This document shows positions 6,914 to 39,862 of a stretch of 64,000 nucleotides of DNA, piece by piece. Every line of letters begins with the position of its first letter. Position 1 is the stretch's first letter. Under the pieces are notes generated by a model. The model ran no database searches. It saw nothing but the letters and a program-made list of their open reading frames with translations, and was not told the DNA's origin. A program made the position numbers and the translations under genes. Source of the stretch: an uncultured bacterium (GTDB lineage Bacteria > Omnitrophota > Omnitrophia > Omnitrophales > Abzuiibacteriaceae); the NCBI GenBank assembly GCA_964387845.1, contig CAYLXA010000007.1, positions 32,001-96,000 of the forward strand. The letters run 5' to 3'.

Positions 6914-6988
6914 TAGCGCTAACGAGATTTGAACTCGTGTCTTCAGAATGAGAATCTGACGTCCTAGGCCGGCCTAGACGATAGCGCC
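6914..6988 (-). tRNA. tRNA-Glu (anticodon CUC), CCA not encoded
   Basis: Cloverleaf folded by hand from the reverse complement: GGCGCUA UC GUC UAGGCCGGCCUAGGAC G UCAGA UUCUCAU UCUGA AGAC ACGAG UUCAAAU CUCGU UAGCGCU A. The 3-bp D-stem and GUCUAG...AGGAC D-arm resemble bacterial tRNA-Glu. The anticodon loop is UU-CUC-AU. Confidence 0.65.
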
Positions 6989-12375: not shown

Positions 12376-13008
12376 ATGACAAAGCGAGACTTTCGCGAAA
12401 TTGAATTCAAGTGGTCTGTAAAATCTGCAAAAGAATTTGCTATTTTCCTTCATCATGCCAAAAAAATGGGTATCCGAATCGGTCCTGCGAAAAAAATTTC
12501 GATCGTGGATACGTATTTGGATACCCGAAACGGAATGTTTGCAAAATCCGGCATCAAAACCAGAATCCGGCGCGCCAATCAAAAATGGGAGCTGACGCAA
12601 AAGCGTATGAGCAAGCTCCGAAGAGGCCTGGCGAGACGTCAGGAAAAAACAATACGTTTGCCAAATTTTGATTCGGTGATTCAAACCATTCAATATGCTT
12701 CCAAAGAATTCCTTCAGGAATTTTTATGCGGAAAGCATGCCTGCGTGCTTTTCACAATCCGCAATCAACGGATTGCGAGAAAGTTGAAAATAACCCGAAA
12801 GACATCGGCCGAACTCTGCTTTGATCAAACCGTGATAAAACGCGGAAAAAAATCCGTTGTTTTGAAAGAAATCGAACTCGAATTTTTAAAAGGAAGGTTT
12901 TCGGAATTTAAGAAATTTATTTCGGCAATCACCCACTCATCAAGCCTCAAGCCCGCCAAAATTTCCAAAGTTGCGACTGCGCTCAAAACTTTCGGGCTTA
13001 AAACATAA
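12376..13008 (+). CDS. CYTH domain protein (triphosphate tunnel metalloenzyme-like)
   Basis: 210 aa. N-terminal REIEFKW resembles the CYTH EIE[RK]KF signature. SD-like AGAGGG upstream. Divergent from the SixA-like gene. Confidence 0.5.
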   Translation: MTKRDFREIEFKWSVKSAKEFAIFLHHAKKMGIRIGPAKKISIVDTYLDTRNGMFAKSGIKTRIRRANQKWELTQKRMSKLRRGLARRQEKTIRLPNFDSVIQTIQYASKEFLQEFLCGKHACVLFTIRNQRIARKLKITRKTSAELCFDQTVIKRGKKSVVLKEIELEFLKGRFSEFKKFISAITHSSSLKPAKISKVATALKTFGLKT

Positions 13009-13993: not shown

Positions 13994-16078
13994 TTACTTG
14001 GGCTTTTGAGGCTTTAATTCGCGTGGCGGAGCTTGCAAGGAAGCTTCCTCGCGGTCAAGGATGCGTTTGCACAAAAATTCCTGGGCGCGGAATTTTTTTC
14101 TTGAATCCGTTTCGACTTTCTGATAATTCCCGTCCGGCAAAAGCTTCCAAGATTTCACGTTGTCCTTAAAATAAATATCCAAAAGCTGAGTTAGTTCTTT
14201 TTTAATTTCCTTGCTTTCGATCGGAAACATGATTTCGACCCGGCGGTCCAGGTTGCGCGGCATCCAATCGGCGCTCGCCAAATAAACCTCATCCTCGCCG
14301 CCATTCTGAAAGTAGAAAATTCTCGCATGCTCGAGAAACATATCTACCAAACTAGTAACTTCAATGTTGTCGCTCAATCCCTGAACGCCCGGTTTTAAGC
14401 AGCAAATGCCGCGCACATTCAACTTGATTTTAACGCCGGCTTTAGACGCGCGGTACAAAGCTTCGATCACTATCGGATCCACAAGCGAGTTCATTTTGGC
14501 CATAATCAGGCCCGGTTTTTCGGTGCTTGAGCGCATGGATTCACGCGTAATCAGCCGGAGAAGTTTGCGCTTGAGCGTAAACGGCGCGACATCGATTTTG
14601 TTCCAACTGGCCGGCTCCGAAAATCCCGTGATCATATTGAAAAACGCAGACAAGTCACCTGCGATACCCTCGTCACATGTAAAGAGACCGACGTCGGAAT
14701 AAAGCCGTGCGGTTTTCTCATTGTAATTACCGGTTGATAAATGCGCGTAGCGCTTAATTCCTTCCGGCTCACGCCTGATGACAAGACATGCTTTGGCGTG
14801 CGTCTTGAGGCCGCGAACACCGTACAACACGTTGGCGCCTGCGATTTCAAGGCGTTTTGCCCATTCAATATTCCTCTCTTCATCAAAGCGGGCTTTGAGC
14901 TCAACGAGTGCTGTCACCTGCTTGCCGTTTTCCGCTGCGCGCTCCAGCGCACGCATGACGGCCGAATCTTTACCTGCTCGATAAAGTGTTTGCTTAATCG
15001 CAAGCACATCCGGATCGGCAGAAGCCGCATTGATAAATTGCAGAAACGCATCAAAAGATTCATAAGGATGCTGAACACAAACATCCTTTTGTTTGATCAA
15101 TTCCCAGATATCGTCGACGTTCGCAAATTCAACTGATGCGCGAGGCCCCCATTCCGGCTGTTTAAACTCATCAAATCCGGGCCGAAAAGCAATTTGTGAA
15201 ATGGTTTTCAAATCAAACCAGCTTTCGACCGGGCAAATCACCTCATCCGAAAATTCAAGCCGGGTCTTCAAAAATTGCGTGAGTACGGCCGAAGCCGCAA
15301 GCTCGGCGCGGACAATATCGCCGTGACGGCGCGCCCGCAATGCCTCACTCATCACCTGCGCAAAGTCATCATCTCTGTCTTCGTCAATATTAAATTCAGC
15401 GCCGCGCGTCAGACGCATCAAACCCTGATCGATGATTTCGTAGCCGGTAAAAAGTTCGCTCGCAAAAAGCGAAACCACATCTTCCAGCAATACAAATGAG
15501 AACCCCGCGCTCTGCGGTAGCGAAATCATGCGCGGAAGATTGCGCGGAATTTCAATGGCGGCAAACTCTTGCTTAACAGCTCCCGGTTTTAAGAGTGAAA
15601 CCACCATATAAAGCGCCAGATTTCCAAGCGTCGGTGTTCTTTCATTTTCGGAAATAGCGATCGGCGTCAGAACCGGAAACAATTCCTTCTCGAAAAAGTG
15701 GCGGATGTAACTTAGTTGAAACTCATTCAGTGCCTGCTTTTTAATGCGGGAAATCCCTGCTTTTTCAAGTTCCGGGATCAATGTCTTAAGAAAATAATCG
15801 TTCTGAACCTGAATCAGCTGATGCGCTTTAGCGCGAACCTGGCGGGCTTCTTCAGACCCGCTTTTGAGGCCCGCAACCCGTACCATGAAAAATTCGTCGA
15901 AATTTGAACTCACAATTCCGATAAATTTTAACCGCTCCAAAAGCGGATTGGCGGCGTCCATTGCTTCCGCTAAAACCCGTTCATTAAACTGAAGCCACGA
16001 AATTTCGCGGTTAAGCAGGCGATCCTGAATATCTTTGTTGATTTCTGAAGTCGGCATCTTGATAATCTCAAATTTCAA
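13994..16078 (-). CDS. ppk: polyphosphate kinase 1
   Basis: 694 aa. NRELSWLQFNERVL-type N-terminus and two PLD-like HKD regions (HAKACLV, HSKLAL-like). Confidence 0.92.
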   Translation of the reverse strand: MKFEIIKMPTSEINKDIQDRLLNREISWLQFNERVLAEAMDAANPLLERLKFIGIVSSNFDEFFMVRVAGLKSGSEEARQVRAKAHQLIQVQNDYFLKTLIPELEKAGISRIKKQALNEFQLSYIRHFFEKELFPVLTPIAISENERTPTLGNLALYMVVSLLKPGAVKQEFAAIEIPRNLPRMISLPQSAGFSFVLLEDVVSLFASELFTGYEIIDQGLMRLTRGAEFNIDEDRDDDFAQVMSEALRARRHGDIVRAELAASAVLTQFLKTRLEFSDEVICPVESWFDLKTISQIAFRPGFDEFKQPEWGPRASVEFANVDDIWELIKQKDVCVQHPYESFDAFLQFINAASADPDVLAIKQTLYRAGKDSAVMRALERAAENGKQVTALVELKARFDEERNIEWAKRLEIAGANVLYGVRGLKTHAKACLVIRREPEGIKRYAHLSTGNYNEKTARLYSDVGLFTCDEGIAGDLSAFFNMITGFSEPASWNKIDVAPFTLKRKLLRLITRESMRSSTEKPGLIMAKMNSLVDPIVIEALYRASKAGVKIKLNVRGICCLKPGVQGLSDNIEVTSLVDMFLEHARIFYFQNGGEDEVYLASADWMPRNLDRRVEIMFPIESKEIKKELTQLLDIYFKDNVKSWKLLPDGNYQKVETDSRKKFRAQEFLCKRILDREEASLQAPPRELKPQKPK

Positions 16079-16135
16079 AATTCAAATATCAAAATCAGAC
16101 TTTTTAAATTTTGATATTTGAAATTTGAATTTTAT
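16071..16135. repeat. AT-rich palindromic element, copy A (arms AAATTTCAAAATTCAAATATCAAAAT / ATTTTGATATTTGAAATTTGAATTTT)
   Basis: Near-perfect ~26-bp inverted repeat with an 11-nt loop. It exactly fills the ppx-stop to ppk-start spacer. Same core as the copies at 22717 and 27205. Confidence 0.7.
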
Positions 16136-17694
16136 GTTTTTGGCGGTTGACCTTGTTTCAATAAAATCGGCCGGCCGAAAATGTCGGAAAACATGCTGCC
16201 TTTTTTGGATAATCCGTCACGCTCGAGCGTCACATCGCCGATTTCTTCAGGAACCCATAAAACAAACGAATCTTTCTTGGACTCAAGTTCAAACGTACGG
16301 ATTTTTTGCTGATGACTCCGGTCTAATGAATCGGCCACCCGTAAAATAGCCGCAAGTTTTGAAACGGTGGCCCGGTCTTGCTTGGTCAGTGACATGTAGG
16401 CCACATGATCCGGCTGAGGAGACGCGCGGCGGTGATAACGCACAATATTTGAGACAAGATCTTTATCGCTTTTTCGAAGCCCGAAAATTTCGGCGGCATC
16501 GACTAAGTAACTGGAATGTTTATGGTGGCTTGTGGCCGCAATAAACATGCCGATATCGTGCAAAATAGCGGAGACCTCAAGTATCAGCCGGTCACGCGTT
16601 CCGAGCCCGTGCTCCTCTTTCAGCAAATCAAATAATTTAACCGACAAACTGGCGACATGCAGCGAATGGGATTCGTCATATTGATATTTTTTTGCCAAAT
16701 GCTTTGCCGAGTTAATGACCTGCTTTGACAAATCAGTTCTTTTATAGCCCGAAAGCAACTGGGAAAGTTCGATCAAAAGGCCGTCCCGGATACTGACCGC
16801 AGGCACCACAATCTTCTCCGCTTTCGTTTCATTCGCAAAATTAGCATAAATCAAGAGAGACGGATAAAGCGTTTCTGCTTCTACATAAGGAATGCCGTAT
16901 TTATCCACAATTTCTTCGGGGGTTAATTTTGAAAGGCTTGTTACAAATTTCTGGAAATCCTTGTTATCAATAATTGAAAAATCTTCCGCAGGTTTTTCAA
17001 TCAGCTGTTTGGCGGCAAAACGAATGTCGCCGCCTAAAGCAATAAACGTATCAATTTCACCCAGATTATATTCACGGCCCGCATAAACCGCGATTCCGTG
17101 AATGCTGCGCTTTAAAACGCGCTGCATCACTTCCGGTTCGGTCTTGCCTGCAATCGCCTGCTCGGGAAGCCGCACGGACCCGATCGAAAGCATCCGGGTC
17201 AATTCGACAACGCCTTTATTTAAAATAATCATTTCCGTACTTCCGGATCCTACTTCAATCACCAGACAATTCTTTTTACCAAAATCAAATTTATCCTGGA
17301 AGACACGCTCAATCGCAATCAGCACAAGCCGGTTTTCCTCCGCGCCTTCCACGACTTCCACATCAATTCCGGTTTGGACAAACACGCGGTCGACGAAATT
17401 ATCGCGGTTAGAAGCTTCTCGGACAGCGCTCGTCGCAATGGCATGAATATTTTTAATGTTGTAGCCGTCAATAACGGTCTTAAAATTCTTGAGAATTTCG
17501 ATACCGTCACGCATCACGCTGTTGCTGATTCTTCCGGAGGTAAACACATCTTTGCCGAAGGCGACGGGTTTTTGAAGATTCTCAAGATAATGAATTTCAG
17601 ACTTTCCTCCCACTTCGGCAACCGCCATGCGGATTCCGCTCGTTCCGATATCAATCACCGCAACCGGTTGTTTGACCGCTGTCTCCGCAGACAT
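16132..17694 (-). CDS. ppx: Ppx/GppA family exopolyphosphatase / guanosine pentaphosphate phosphohydrolase with C-terminal HD domain
   Basis: The start is probably MSAETAVKQPVAVIDIGTSGIRM (ASKHA fold N-terminus). The HD motif ILHDIG is present. The track ORF extends 41 aa further upstream into the ROK gene. The corrected start overlaps the ROK stop by 4 nt. Confidence 0.85.
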   Translation of the reverse strand: MSAETAVKQPVAVIDIGTSGIRMAVAEVGGKSEIHYLENLQKPVAFGKDVFTSGRISNSVMRDGIEILKNFKTVIDGYNIKNIHAIATSAVREASNRDNFVDRVFVQTGIDVEVVEGAEENRLVLIAIERVFQDKFDFGKKNCLVIEVGSGSTEMIILNKGVVELTRMLSIGSVRLPEQAIAGKTEPEVMQRVLKRSIHGIAVYAGREYNLGEIDTFIALGGDIRFAAKQLIEKPAEDFSIIDNKDFQKFVTSLSKLTPEEIVDKYGIPYVEAETLYPSLLIYANFANETKAEKIVVPAVSIRDGLLIELSQLLSGYKRTDLSKQVINSAKHLAKKYQYDESHSLHVASLSVKLFDLLKEEHGLGTRDRLILEVSAILHDIGMFIAATSHHKHSSYLVDAAEIFGLRKSDKDLVSNIVRYHRRASPQPDHVAYMSLTKQDRATVSKLAAILRVADSLDRSHQQKIRTFELESKKDSFVLWVPEEIGDVTLERDGLSKKGSMFSDIFGRPILLKQGQPPKT

Positions 17695-17695
17695 T

Positions 17696-18703
17696 TTAAT
17701 CCCTCTTCTTTTCCTGGTAGTGATCCCACGCCAGTTTGGCAGCGCCCAAAATAATCGCGTCATCTTTGAGCTGTGCCGGCACAACCGCAACGTATTTGGC
17801 GATCGACTGCATGGCATGCTGCCGCATTGATTCGCGCGCTTCGTTCACTACAATACGTGACATCGCTTCTACCAACCCTCCGCCCAAGACAATCATCTCG
17901 GGATTGAGGATATTGACCACATTCGCCATCGCAATACCGAGGATGCGCGACTTTCGGATCATCAGGTCTTTGATTTTTTGATCCCCGGCATCAATCGCAC
18001 GTTTCAATGCGCCGCTTTTAATGTCTTTGATGTCCGTCCCGGACATTTTGTATAGTTTCGGAGCCTGTTGCTTCGCTGCCAAGAGCGCTGCTTCTGAAGC
18101 AATCGCCAAGCGGCCCGCCAATGCCTCCAGACAACCGCGCTTGCCGCATCCGCACATCGGGCCCAGTGGATCCACCAAAATATGCCCGATTTCGCCTGCA
18201 GCGCCAGTAAATCCGCGATACAACGCGCCATTTAATATGAGAGCGCCGCCGATGCCGGTTCCCGGAAAAATACCGACCACATGCTTATGGCCTTTGGCGG
18301 CGCCGAAAACAAGTTCTCCATAGAGGCCTGCATTGACGTCATTTTCGAGGACAACCGGTACTTTAAAGATTTTGGATATTTTTTTTGCAAGCGGATATTG
18401 CTTCAGAAAACGAACATTTGGCGATTCAATCACAACACCGCGATCATCAATAATGCCCGGGCAGCCGATGCCGATGGCTTTCAGATTCTTAAGATCGACG
18501 TCCGATTCATCGGTAACTTGATAAATACTTTCTGCGATATCATCAATAAAATTTTTCCCGCCTTTAGACACTTCGGTTTTCATTTTTGTGGAAGCCAAAA
18601 CGCGGAAATGATCATTCATTAAAGCGGTCAGCATCTTGGTGCCGCCCAAATCAATGCCGACAATATATTTTTTCTTTTTCTTATTTTTTTTCTTTTTTGC
18701 CAT
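17696..18703 (-). CDS. ROK family sugar kinase (glucokinase-like) with poly-lysine N-terminus
   Basis: 335 aa. MAKKKKNKKKKKYIVGIDLGGTKM. Zinc motif CGCGKRGCLE typical of ROK kinases. Confidence 0.8.
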   Translation of the reverse strand: MAKKKKNKKKKKYIVGIDLGGTKMLTALMNDHFRVLASTKMKTEVSKGGKNFIDDIAESIYQVTDESDVDLKNLKAIGIGCPGIIDDRGVVIESPNVRFLKQYPLAKKISKIFKVPVVLENDVNAGLYGELVFGAAKGHKHVVGIFPGTGIGGALILNGALYRGFTGAAGEIGHILVDPLGPMCGCGKRGCLEALAGRLAIASEAALLAAKQQAPKLYKMSGTDIKDIKSGALKRAIDAGDQKIKDLMIRKSRILGIAMANVVNILNPEMIVLGGGLVEAMSRIVVNEARESMRQHAMQSIAKYVAVVPAQLKDDAIILGAAKLAWDHYQEKKRD

Positions 18704-18705
18704 CG

Positions 18706-19650
18706 CTAATTCCTTGACACTGCAAGCTCGGGAAAGTTAAGTTTTTGCCAGCCGGTCCCCTGATGACCAAAGCTGAAAAGCTCCGGGTGAAAAATCTCTG
18801 CCAAAATTTCAAATGATTCCAAAAGCCTCGGGCCGGGCCGGTTAAAATATTGATTACCGTCCGCCAAAAACACCTTTCTTTCGCGCACCGCTTTTAACTG
18901 GTTCCAACCGGGCTGCGCAAAAAGCGGTTCTAATTCGGTTTTGGTCCGGGCCATATCAAATCCGCACGGCACAATCATGATCACATCCGGATCTGCTTCT
19001 TTTAACTTTTCCCACTCAAGCCAGGGAGAATGTTTTCCGGCTTCGCCAAATAAATTATCAGCACCGGCTGCTTCCACGAGTTCCGGAACCCAATTACCGG
19101 ACGTCATTAAAGGATCGATCCATTCCAAAAGCACGGTACGCGGACGGTTATTTGCTTGGTGCGCTTTTTTGGCAATGGCTGCCATTTGATTTTCCATATC
19201 CCGGACAAGTTTTTCGCCATTTTGTTTCACACCAAGCTCGCCGGCAATTTTCAAAATATCCGAGAAAACATCTGAAAGTGAATTGGGTTTGAACGAAATG
19301 ATTCTTGCCTTAGATCCCATCATTTCACAAACTGCTTGTTCTACATCCTTCAAACTTACCGCACAAACCTCGCACTGATCCTGAGTCAGGATAAAATCGG
19401 GCGCCAGAGATTTAAGTTTTGCAGAATCGATCTCATAGATAGAGATCGCATTGTGCGCGAGCGATTTGACCGCCCGGTCGATCTCGGAGCTTTTGGCATA
19501 AATATCAATCTTGGGCTTGCTGAGCTGCGGAAGTTCTTTAACGGATCCGGGGAAATCACACTCATGCGAGCGGCCGATTAATTGATCTCGGAGCCCAAGT
19601 GCGCAAATAATTTCTGTTGCGCTCGACAGCAGAGATACAATTTTCGGCAT
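18706..19650 (-). CDS. periplasmic-binding-protein type (class III, BtuF/FhuD-like) protein lacking a signal peptide
   Basis: 314 aa. It starts directly with the first beta-strand motif KIVSLLSSATEIICALG. No hydrophobic leader. Confidence 0.6.
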   Translation of the reverse strand: MPKIVSLLSSATEIICALGLRDQLIGRSHECDFPGSVKELPQLSKPKIDIYAKSSEIDRAVKSLAHNAISIYEIDSAKLKSLAPDFILTQDQCEVCAVSLKDVEQAVCEMMGSKARIISFKPNSLSDVFSDILKIAGELGVKQNGEKLVRDMENQMAAIAKKAHQANNRPRTVLLEWIDPLMTSGNWVPELVEAAGADNLFGEAGKHSPWLEWEKLKEADPDVIMIVPCGFDMARTKTELEPLFAQPGWNQLKAVRERKVFLADGNQYFNRPGPRLLESFEILAEIFHPELFSFGHQGTGWQKLNFPELAVSRN

Positions 19651-19679
19651 AAAACACCTTCTGTCGCATTGAACACCCT

Positions 19680-20210
19680 TTAATTGATCGCGACAATGCG
19701 AGAATCGCGCAACGCAGGATTGATACGCTCAAACGACCAACTCAACCCAAAAAGAACAACGGTAAACAGCATATCGCCGGCTAAAGTATTTCTGAAAAAC
19801 GGGAGCGCCATGGCGAAACATTCCACAAGCCCAGCCATAGTCTTAGGATACAACGTGTCAATGAGCCATACGCCGAAATTAGTAATCATAAAAAACATGA
19901 CGGAACTTGCAAGCGCCGCAATCAAAATATTGCCGGCGCTTTTCTTTTGCCGAAGCCAAAACCCGATGCCAATCACCAAAGCCAGGCAGCCATAAGTCGC
20001 GATTACTTGACTATGAAAACCAATTACCAGATCGCTTAACAAGAGCGCGCCGAAAGTGACCAGAAAAGCAGCACGTTTATCGGAAAACTGTGCACCGCCA
20101 AAAAGCGCCATCGCCACAACGGGCGTTAAGTTCGGTGGATGAGGAATCAGCCGTGAAGCAGCTGCGGATAAGGTTAACGCAAGCAGCATCCAAAATCTGG
20201 GTTTTAACAT
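19680..20210 (-). CDS. small integral membrane protein (ECF S-component-like / putative substrate-capture protein)
   Basis: 176 aa, ~5-6 predicted TM helices (MLLALTLSAA..., LVIGFHSQV..., FFMITNFGVWLI...). Confidence 0.4.
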   Translation of the reverse strand: MLKPRFWMLLALTLSAAASRLIPHPPNLTPVVAMALFGGAQFSDKRAAFLVTFGALLLSDLVIGFHSQVIATYGCLALVIGIGFWLRQKKSAGNILIAALASSVMFFMITNFGVWLIDTLYPKTMAGLVECFAMALPFFRNTLAGDMLFTVVLFGLSWSFERINPALRDSRIVAIN

Positions 20211-22716: not shown

Positions 22717-22790
22717 AATTTTAATATCAAAATCTAAATTTCAAATATCAAAACATCTTTTGAATTTTGATATTTGATATTTGAATTTAT
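22717..22790. repeat. AT-rich palindromic element, copy B (ATATCAAAATCTAAATTTCAAATATCAAAA ... TTTTGATATTTGATATTTGAATTT)
   Basis: Inverted repeat filling the spacer between the TPR-protein stop and the redoxin start. Shares the core AAATTTCAAATATCAAAA with copies A and C. Confidence 0.7.
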
Positions 22791-27204: not shown

Positions 27205-27335
27205 AAACCCAATTTCAAATATCAAAATCTAAAACAAATTCTAAATTTAAATGTTTCAATAGCCGTTTTGAAATTCAATATTTAGTAATTTGAAATTGTT
27301 TGGATATTTGAAATTTGACATTTGAATTTAAATAT
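27205..27335. repeat. AT-rich palindromic element, copy C (extended; AATTTCAAATATCAAAATCTAAAAC ... GGATATTTGAAATTTGACATTTGAATTT)
   Basis: Lies in the divergent spacer between the membrane protein and the Rieske gene. Same core as copies A and B, with additional internal TTTGAAATT repeats. Confidence 0.65.
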
Positions 27336-39736: not shown

Positions 39737-39790
39737 GATACTCGCCTATCATTGCTATTCACCTAGAACTATCTACTGTAGGCGAGTATC
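39737..39790. repeat. 12-bp-stem hairpin (GATACTCGCCTA / TAGGCGAGTATC, 30-nt loop) abutting the tRNA-Pro 3' end
   Basis: Perfect inverted repeat read directly. The right arm overlaps the tRNA discriminator base. Confidence 0.6.
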
Positions 39791-39862
39791 GGGGCGAGAG
39801 GAGTTGAACCTCCGACCTCACGGTCCCGAACCGTGCGCTCTACCAAGCTAAGCTACGCCCCG
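39789..39862 (-). tRNA. tRNA-Pro (anticodon CGG), CCA not encoded
   Basis: Hand fold: CGGGGCG UA GCUU AGCUUGGUA GAGC G CACGG UUCGGGA CCGUG AGGUC GGAGG UUCAACU CCUCU CGCCCCG A. 7-bp GC-rich acceptor stem. Anticodon loop UU-CGG-GA. Confidence 0.75.

Follow-up and report, generated by a model that had tools for sequence, protein, structure and literature searches.

Lysine-rich tracts are known to bind polyphosphate (polyP) non-covalently, an interaction termed KPM (PMC12077175). The Pseudomonas aeruginosa proteins EngA and SrmB, which are validated KPM targets, carry 9 lysines within 20 amino acids, 4 of them consecutive, whereas proteins with 5-7 lysines were negative (PMC12077175). In Escherichia coli, the Lys-rich N-terminal region of YihI binds polyP (PMC12345225). 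The Caulobacter Ppk1 protein needs a basic C-terminal tail of 22 amino acids for association with polyP granules (PMC3806658), and CHAD domains and the KPAA tail of AlgP are positively charged modules that bring proteins to such granules (PMC9239181). Here we analyzed a 64,000-nucleotide stretch of DNA (hereafter the window) from an uncultured bacterium of the Omnitrophales, which encodes a ROK-family sugar kinase with a polylysine N-terminal tail, followed by the genes for an exopolyphosphatase (ppx) and polyphosphate kinase 1 (ppk1). We tentatively infer that this tail may act as a disordered polycationic, KPM-like segment that binds polyP and places a glucokinase-like enzyme beside Ppx and PPK1.

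The kinase gene, its tail and its ribosome-binding site are located in the window as follows:

17696..18703, minus strand: ROK-family sugar kinase, 335 amino acids (Pfam ROK match, motifs, structural neighbours)
18665..18703, minus strand: start codon and 12-codon tail (sequence read and codon listing; predicted coil in the AlphaFold model)
18710..18715, minus strand: Shine-Dalgarno (SD) sequence AAGGAA, 6 nt 5' of the ROK ATG and inside the 3' end of the Peripla_BP_2 gene

The kinase gene begins MAKKKKNKKKKKY and then runs straight into the strand IVGIDLGGT. Its ATG occupies 18703..18701 and codons 2-13 occupy 18700..18665 (GCA AAA AAG AAA AAA AAT AAG AAA AAG AAA AAA TAT), followed by ATT GTC GGC ATT GAT TTG GGC GGC ACC, which encode IVGIDLGGT. 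The tail reads M-A-KKKK-N-KKKKK-Y, with 9 Lys and 1 Asn across residues 3-12; six of the Lys codons are AAA and three are AAG, leaving A-runs of 6, 8, 2, 5 and 6 nt. The initial annotation had described 10 Lys in 12 residues ahead of a ROK core starting at IVGIDLGGT. The polylysine run is real and the structural reading, a polylysine N-tail on a ROK sugar kinase of a polyP operon, was right, but the count has to be corrected to 9 Lys plus 1 Asn.

At the Lys frequency of the window open reading frames (ORFs; 7.5%), the probability of at least 9 Lys in a 10-residue window is about 7e-10, and the expected count of such Lys-dense windows is about 1e-5 over the approximately 19,000 residues of the window. 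None of the other genes (about 58) has more than 3 consecutive Lys, and among 152 ORFs from the window and from related loci of the type defined below, a Lys plus Arg (K/R) count of 9-10 in the first 15 residues was reached only by ROK proteins. The best 20-residue window of the kinase holds 9 Lys, with Lys runs of 4 and 5. At the nucleotide level, the most T-rich 36 nt of the whole window is the stretch from 18664 (29 of 36 T).

The start codon could have been mis-called, in which case translation would begin downstream and the Lys run would be an untranslated leader. Beyond the general uncertainty of start prediction, the one feature in favour of this is the non-canonical ATT codon (Ile14) after the run, and we consider it extremely improbable. 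There is no in-frame ATG, GTG or TTG between the ROK ATG and Leu19, and initiation at Leu19 or Met24 would cut away the invariant D18-x-G20-G21-T22 (phosphate-1) motif. Since no alternative start keeps DxGGT, the tail is necessarily translated if the enzyme is made; a true start downstream of the run, which the initial annotation had named as the result that would overturn its reading, is impossible without loss of that motif. A good SD sequence precedes the ATG by 6 nt, and the TAG stop of the upstream Peripla_BP_2 gene (18708..18706) lies 2 nt before it. The same layout was found in more than 10 independent tail-bearing lineages, in several of which an in-frame stop is present 1-5 codons upstream of the ATG. 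Judged from the reading frame, the polylysine tail is genuine and not an artefact, and would be translated whenever the enzyme is made. A reading of the tail as the n-region of a signal peptide was rejected, the residues that follow being strand 1 of the ROK fold with the catalytic Asp.

Profile and motif evidence indicates that the protein is a catalytically intact, glucokinase-like ROK sugar kinase. It matched Pfam ROK (PF00480) with 231.3 bits (cutoff 22.9) over residues 15-326, and it has the motif residues D18/G20/G21/T22, ENDVN (N121-D122), GEIGH (E171/G173/H174) and the zinc ligands H174/C184/C186/C191, which are invariant or more than 90% conserved in 87 homologues. It is of the kinase and not the repressor type, with 14 residues ahead of the ROK domain and no helix-turn-helix domain, and its matches to NagC and Mlc span just their kinase-like parts. 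The NCBIfam model TIGR00744 (ROK_glcA_fam) scored 201.5 bits, under its cutoff of 260.35, so that it is the nearest subfamily and not an assignment; because this cutoff was missed, the sugar specificity is something we infer and do not take as established. The nearest structures were 2QM1, 3VGK and 3VOV (phmmer E 5e-47 to 5e-40; Foldseek TM 0.79-0.90). The model of the polyphosphate glucokinase (PPGK) family, NF045942, gave 49.8 bits against a cutoff of 250, over residues 15-178 only, and no PPGK structure was found among the top 50 Foldseek PDB neighbours. Actinobacterial PPGKs are not known to have the Cys-rich zinc motif, which the window kinase keeps. In an AlphaFold model built with the homologue alignment (overall pLDDT 95.4), residues 1-12 were without secondary structure and strand 1 started at Tyr13. 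The mean pLDDT was 62 for residues 1-10, compared with 88-99 in the other 10-residue blocks, and the model thus predicts that the Lys tail is intrinsically disordered.

Two genes of polyP metabolism follow the kinase gene:

16132..17694, minus strand: ppx, long-form exopolyphosphatase (Ppx-GppA, domain III, HD; profile matches), with its ATG 1 nt past the ROK stop
13994..16057, minus strand: ppk1, polyphosphate kinase 1 (profile matches)

We defined the module, hereafter the triad, as a ROK kinase directly followed on the same strand by a long-form Ppx and then by PPK1. The window has this arrangement, and ROK>ppx>ppk1 was also found in 10 of 10 looked-up homologue contexts, 7 from the window clade and 3 from a sister clade (for homologue P0002, short contigs show just the start of the gene after ROK). 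A metagenome scan added 5 cases with a full-length Ppx (loci L013, L014, L017, L020 and L025), and in L021 the Ppx is present and the contig ends before the ppk1 position. The triad loci (L004-L014, L017, L020 and L095-L097) belong to Omnitrophota, Elusimicrobiota, Verrucomicrobiota/Lentisphaerota/Kiritimatiellia and Acidobacteriota. Their ROK-ppx junction is mostly tight or overlapping, and their frequent flanks are pstSCAB-phoU, CYTH-CHAD or CHAD, PPK2 and a His_Phos_1 phosphatase. In the papers that could be searched, nothing relevant was found on a cluster of ROK/glucokinase, ppx and ppk or on polyP glucokinases rich in Lys.

In the window the ROK-ppx junction is TAA-A-ATG and the ppx SD lies within the last ROK codons (GAA AAG AAG AGG GAT). 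A mechanically called ppx ORF (16132..17817) starts 41 codons further up, at ATG 17817, with about 120 nt of overlap with ROK; homology and the SD place the probable real start at ATG 17694. For ppk1 the likely start is the ATG at 16057, with an in-frame TTG at 16078, leaving a ppx-ppk1 spacer of 53-74 nt that is AU-rich and contains a strong hairpin. Translational coupling of the kinase to both ppx and ppk, as initially proposed, therefore holds for ROK and ppx, which are tightly coupled, but not for ppx and ppk1, which this spacer splits.

The tails of kinases in triads were more basic than those of other ROK proteins. In the metagenome scan the median K/R of the tail was 4 in 13 distinct triad kinases and 1 in 50 unlinked ROKs (Mann-Whitney p ~5e-7, a test that ignores kinship, the triad kinases forming related clades). 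A scan of genome contigs with the single protein as query yielded distant Paenibacillus and Agathobacter ROKs only, which gave three extra unlinked controls. A second conserved pairing was also seen, in which ROK is followed by a short Ppx-GppA (313-330 amino acids) without ppk1 (L015 4983..6941, L018 3607..5611, L029, L034 and L089).

The tail was then compared across the 120 closest homologues of the kinase, which are 52-100% identical to it and of which the named ones come from metagenome-assembled genomes of Omnitrophota/Elusimicrobiota. The check proposed in the initial annotation, whether orthologues carry the tail, came out in its favour: an N-terminal extension before [IVL]G[IVF]DLGGT was present in 120 of 120 homologues, with a net positive charge in 116 and a median of 3 K/R. 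The usual extension is M-[AGS]-K-K-K-K-[YF]. The tails of the closest relatives are MAKKKKKNKKKKKH (91% identical) and MAKKKKNKKKKKKH (85%), with whole-codon differences, and the Lys counts of close relatives are 4+5, 5+5 and 4+6. The tail has reached 8 or more basic residues separately in at least 4-5 lineages (P0001-3, P0005, P0019, P0023/P0054 and P0037), whose nearest neighbours have 4-6. The long polylysine tract has thus arisen repeatedly by expansion of a short basic N-terminus that is ancestral. It is established that the tail exists, that it must be translated and that it is conserved in kind, at the level of amino acids and charge, as is the linkage of the kinase to the polyP operon.

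Some homologues with nearly no N-terminal charge (P0036, P0046, P0084 and P0061) have strongly basic C-tails, e.g. ...DRFTDRRRGDRRDKKKK, and the charges of the N- and C-tails were weakly and negatively correlated (Spearman rho -0.28, p = 0.0015, uncorrected). A compensation between termini is suggestive only and is confounded, the C-terminal ROK codons overlapping the purine-rich ppx SD. In the window, the SD in the last ROK codons by itself yields K/R/E codons.

Codon usage in the tails points to selection on the peptide and not on a slippery tract. Lys positions are kept through AAA<->AAG swaps (window, P0002 and P0003), and Arg in the tails is encoded by CGT, CGC or CGG in 5 of the 6 Arg-bearing lineages. 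No enrichment of AAA was found in the tails (33/61, compared with 173/270 in gene bodies; not significant). Four loci share a longest A-run of exactly 8, whereas simulations that drew synonymous codons at random with the AAA frequency of the respective locus gave a median of 11-12, with a probability of 0.20-0.33 per locus for a run of 8 or less. This pattern fits the retention of Lys together with avoidance of long pure A-tracts.

According to the favoured explanation, the Omnitrophota/Elusimicrobiota branch would have had an ancestral short basic N-terminus, M-[AG]-K-K-K-K-[YF], which in the window lineage would have grown to 9-10 lysines by in-frame codon gains in the A-rich tract. The tail would serve as a non-specific electrostatic tether, non-covalent and of the KPM type, to the polyP made and degraded by the operon partners, and would enrich the kinase at chains or granules of polyP, beside PPK1 and Ppx. 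Sugar phosphorylation might in this way be coupled to the polyP pool, either with polyP as the donor or with ATP regenerated by PPK1. The linkage in the triad, the conservation of charge and not of nucleotides, and the published cases of polyP binding by Lys tracts and of granule targeting by the basic tail of Caulobacter Ppk1 together give circumstantial support for docking. With 9 Lys in 20 residues, 5 of them consecutive, the window tail has the density associated with KPM (at least 3 consecutive Lys and about 9 per 20 residues; PMC12077175), which most orthologues, with 3-5 Lys, do not reach. The polyP-lysine modification mentioned in the initial annotation does not apply in a covalent sense. 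A PASK motif is a 20-residue window that includes one Lys or more and consists of D/E/S/K to at least 75% (PMC12077175, PMC12345225); the first 20 residues of the kinase, MAKKKKNKKKKKYIVGIDLG, hold 9 K and 1 D, that is 50%, and polyP is now considered to attach to lysine repeats non-covalently (PMC12077175).

Several results weigh against a polyP tether. A sister clade, collected with the L017 kinase as query and with named members from Verrucomicrobiae, Lentisphaerae, Kiritimatiellae, Aminicenantales and Terriglobales, has an extension of about 8-10 residues ending in YW, with a median of 2 K/R; in 27 of 115 proteins the net charge of this extension is zero or negative. The tails of P0177 (MGADDRFW) and P0213 (MASDEKHW) are acidic, yet these kinases are encoded in ROK>ppx>ppk1>CHAD operons, so that a basic tail is not needed for membership in the triad. 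The kinases paired with a short Ppx likewise have acidic N-termini, of the MAEASGKREYF type. Across 10-12 loci the K+R count of the tail drops as gene GC rises (rho -0.78 to -0.83), and the GC-rich relatives have weak tails (MAKDKAV, MGKDKRCV) with no substitution of Arg for Lys; this correlation and the lack of Arg compensation make a compositional or mutational component likely. Unlinked ROKs, too, commonly start with MAK, MSK or MKK. The kinase lies outside NF045942, the known polyP-glucokinase family, and since a polycation binds any polyanion, the sequence gives no ligand specificity. The charge of the core domain (pI 9.17; median 9.4 in triad kinases and 6.0 in unlinked ROKs) was dropped as evidence for polyP binding because the proteins of the whole window tend to be unusually basic (59 ORFs with a median pI of 8.7, of which 41% exceed pI 9). 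Docking on polyP, as first suggested, is therefore plausible from the triad linkage, the conserved charge and the literature, and is weakened by the acidic-tailed triad kinases and the GC correlation.

The main rival to the tether takes the tail to be a tolerated low-complexity expansion, with at most a role in expression and no polyP-specific function, which we regard as rather unlikely. The M-A-K-K start would then reflect the general bacterial preference for A-rich Lys codons and an unstructured initiation region, and replication slippage at low GC would have added Lys codons that were tolerated because the N-terminus is disordered. Such an expansion is in agreement with the negative correlation between tail length and gene GC (rho ~-0.8), the short and weakly charged tails of GC-rich relatives, the whole-codon indels between close relatives, the existence of acidic-tailed triad kinases and the frequency of MAK/MSK/MKK starts in unlinked ROKs. 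In most relatives ROK is also the first gene of the operon, where efficient initiation matters. Folding of the initiation region points the same way (z = +1.14; folding as good or better in 176 of 200 shuffles), although by this shuffle test the mRNA is not significantly unstructured there and the result does not discriminate. On the other hand, no similar expansion is present in any other gene of the window, 116 of 120 tails are net positive, and the charge persists without A-richness, AAA not being enriched over AAG and Arg being encoded by CGN. Iterated Lys codons slow elongation and do not help it (PMC4363877), and the interruptions that hold the A-runs to 8 or less suggest long maintenance under constraint and not recent slippage. 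Function could also reside in the nucleotides, with the A-rich tract as a slippery site, whether a phase-variation switch that controls ROK together with the coupled ppx, a poly(A)-track attenuator of translation or a frameshift site. The '11 A in 12 nt' (12A-1) poly(A)-track pattern lowers reporter expression (PMC4552401), and the tail stretch A6-G-A8 has this pattern, so some translational attenuation is possible; a T8/A8 run exists, the tract varies in length between relatives, and a +/-1 shift meets an early stop (TAA in the +1 frame) and would probably lower translation of the coupled ppx. We nevertheless hold a slippery site to be very doubtful. The longest homopolymer of the tract is A8 (T8 at 18684..18691), and the 64 kb contain 7 A/T runs of at least 8, this one included (about 2.3 expected from base composition). 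In E. coli, ribosomes slide robustly from about A11 on, A9 and A10 giving little (PMC4363877). The choice of codons shortens the runs, which is the opposite of a contingency locus. In the close lineage, 5 contigs (four samples) and 7 protein variants keep the frame throughout and differ by whole codons (assemblies being consensus sequences, which may hide minority alleles), and the tracts are identical in two pairs of independent assemblies. The initial claim of a slipped-strand phase-variation site is thus not supported, in view of the modest run length, the commonness of such runs in the window, the AAG and AAT interruptions and the in-frame state of the known alleles.

A functional polycationic tail might instead have another target: anionic membrane phospholipids, with the kinase placed near sugar uptake, or RNA, DNA or the nucleoid, or it might be a handle for degradation or regulation of the polyP-Lon type. 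The conservation at the peptide level applies equally to such targets, nothing in the sequence specifies the ligand, and the polyP-binding proteins EngA, SrmB, YihI and AlgP are also associated with nucleic acids or ribosomes (PMC12077175, PMC12345225, PMC9239181). The sole consistent context of the kinase is, however, polyP and phosphate metabolism (pst-phoU, ppx, ppk1, CHAD and PPK2), no amphipathic or hydrophobic element was read beside the Lys run, and the protein has no DNA-binding domain; another target seems quite unlikely to us. Returning to polyP as the ligand, a broader form of the tether, in which the triad is a novel multi-phylum module and its Omnitrophota/Elusimicrobiota kinase evolved a polylysine 'KPM tag' that docks on polyP and links sugar phosphorylation to the polyP pool, is put forward as an unlikely proposal.

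The surroundings of the triad include two further features:

16074..16129, minus strand: AU-rich 22-bp hairpin in the ppx-ppk1 spacer (folding compared with shuffles; lineage-specific)
12376..13008, plus strand: CYTH-domain protein of 210 amino acids, pI 10.75, by the polyP cluster (profile match)

The spacer hairpin has a dG of -22.4 kcal/mol (z = -4.94), and 0 of 200 shuffles folded as well. Further copies of its arm motif, TTCAAATATCAAAAT, are found at 22740..22778 and 27214..27230, with 5 matches compared with 0.13 expected. The hairpin is absent in L004, the 85%-identical relative, where the ppx-ppk1 gap is 8 nt. From its sequence it looks like a REP-like repeated palindromic element of this genome.

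The C-terminus of PPK1 (13994..14020) ends in a conserved ...ELKPQKPK, with LKPQRPK or IRPQKPK in relatives (L004, L006, L009, L010 and L011), and that of Ppx (16132..16160) in ...LKQGxPPK, both of them short conserved basic/proline motifs. By analogy with the granule-targeting basic C-tail of Caulobacter Ppk1, these ends may be relevant.

The genes for the CYTH protein, a LemA protein and a CPXCG zinc-ribbon protein adjoin ppk1. Where the window has a CYTH-only protein, the relatives L006 and L009 have a CYTH-CHAD fusion of 467-487 amino acids, and the window lineage, with the longest Lys tails, seems to be without a local CHAD. The idea that the Lys tail replaces CHAD was rejected, L006 and L009 having long tails plus CYTH-CHAD and L010-L012 having short tails with no CHAD nearby. 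Upstream of the kinase, a Peripla_BP_2 (BtuF/TroA-like) gene at 18706..20210 on the minus strand encodes a protein (MPKIVSLLSSATEII...) in which no signal peptide is obvious. In the window lineage ROK is not the first gene of its transcription unit, being preceded by GTP-PEPCK, a DUF6580 membrane protein and Peripla_BP_2; most relatives have a gap of 60-270 nt or phoU upstream of ROK. An Rfam scan of the whole window found nothing at the Lys tract, its sole matches being two tRNA genes on the minus strand (6914..6988 and 39789..39862).

The occurrence of the triad in several phyla points to a link, so far unstudied, by which uncultured lineages connect sugar phosphorylation with the turnover of polyP. 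Most demonstrations of KPM come from in vitro work or from over-expressed proteins, and what it means for bacterial physiology is still under debate. The window kinase has a Lys repeat of the validated density built into its gene and is co-transcribed with the enzymes that make and degrade polyP. If the tether is real, this would be the first metabolic enzyme recruited to polyP by a Lys repeat that its own operon encodes, and the kinase might represent a new type of polyP-fuelled sugar kinase distinct from PPGK. The natural variants, from acidic tails to 10 Lys, form an allelic series for the recruitment of proteins to polyP by Lys repeats in cells. If the tail is merely a compositional expansion, it is a minor curiosity.

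Compared with the solved ROK glucokinases of Enterococcus faecalis (2QM1), Streptomyces griseus (3VGK) and Thermus thermophilus (3VOV), which are ATP-dependent, the window kinase shares the fold and the catalytic and zinc motifs at 30-33% identity, but in those enzymes the first strand is preceded by only 2-5 residues, with no Lys run among them. PPGK (EC 2.7.1.63) is likewise a sugar kinase of the ROK superfamily that is functionally tied to polyP and offers itself as the obvious functional analogue of a kinase from a polyP operon, although the window kinase is not a member of that family (HMM score 49.8 against 250). In poly(A)-track attenuators and contingency loci an A-rich Lys-coding tract with the 12A-1 pattern is also found (PMC4552401), whereas the pure run in the window is A8, interrupted by AAG and AAT, with no out-of-frame alleles among the assemblies.

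The KPM targets EngA, SrmB and YihI resemble the window kinase in having a disordered Lys-rich tract with 9 K per 20 amino acids and at least 4 consecutive. These proteins belong to ribosome biogenesis or RNA biology, carry the tract internally or at the C-terminus and are in no case encoded with polyP enzymes, whereas the window tract, a putative polyP binder, forms the very N-terminal end of a metabolic kinase whose gene is part of a polyP operon. The tail of Caulobacter crescentus Ppk1 is, like it, a short, highly positive terminal tail on an enzyme of the polyP pathway; it is located at the C-terminus of PPK1, with 22 amino acids of mixed composition, in contrast to the nearly pure Lys tail at the N-terminus of the window kinase, and the PPK1 of the window operon has only a mild conserved basic end. 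Many related triad loci contain CHAD genes, but CHAD is a folded helical domain and the AlgP module a repeat domain of 154 amino acids, while the window tail is a 10-residue, homopolymer-like tag.

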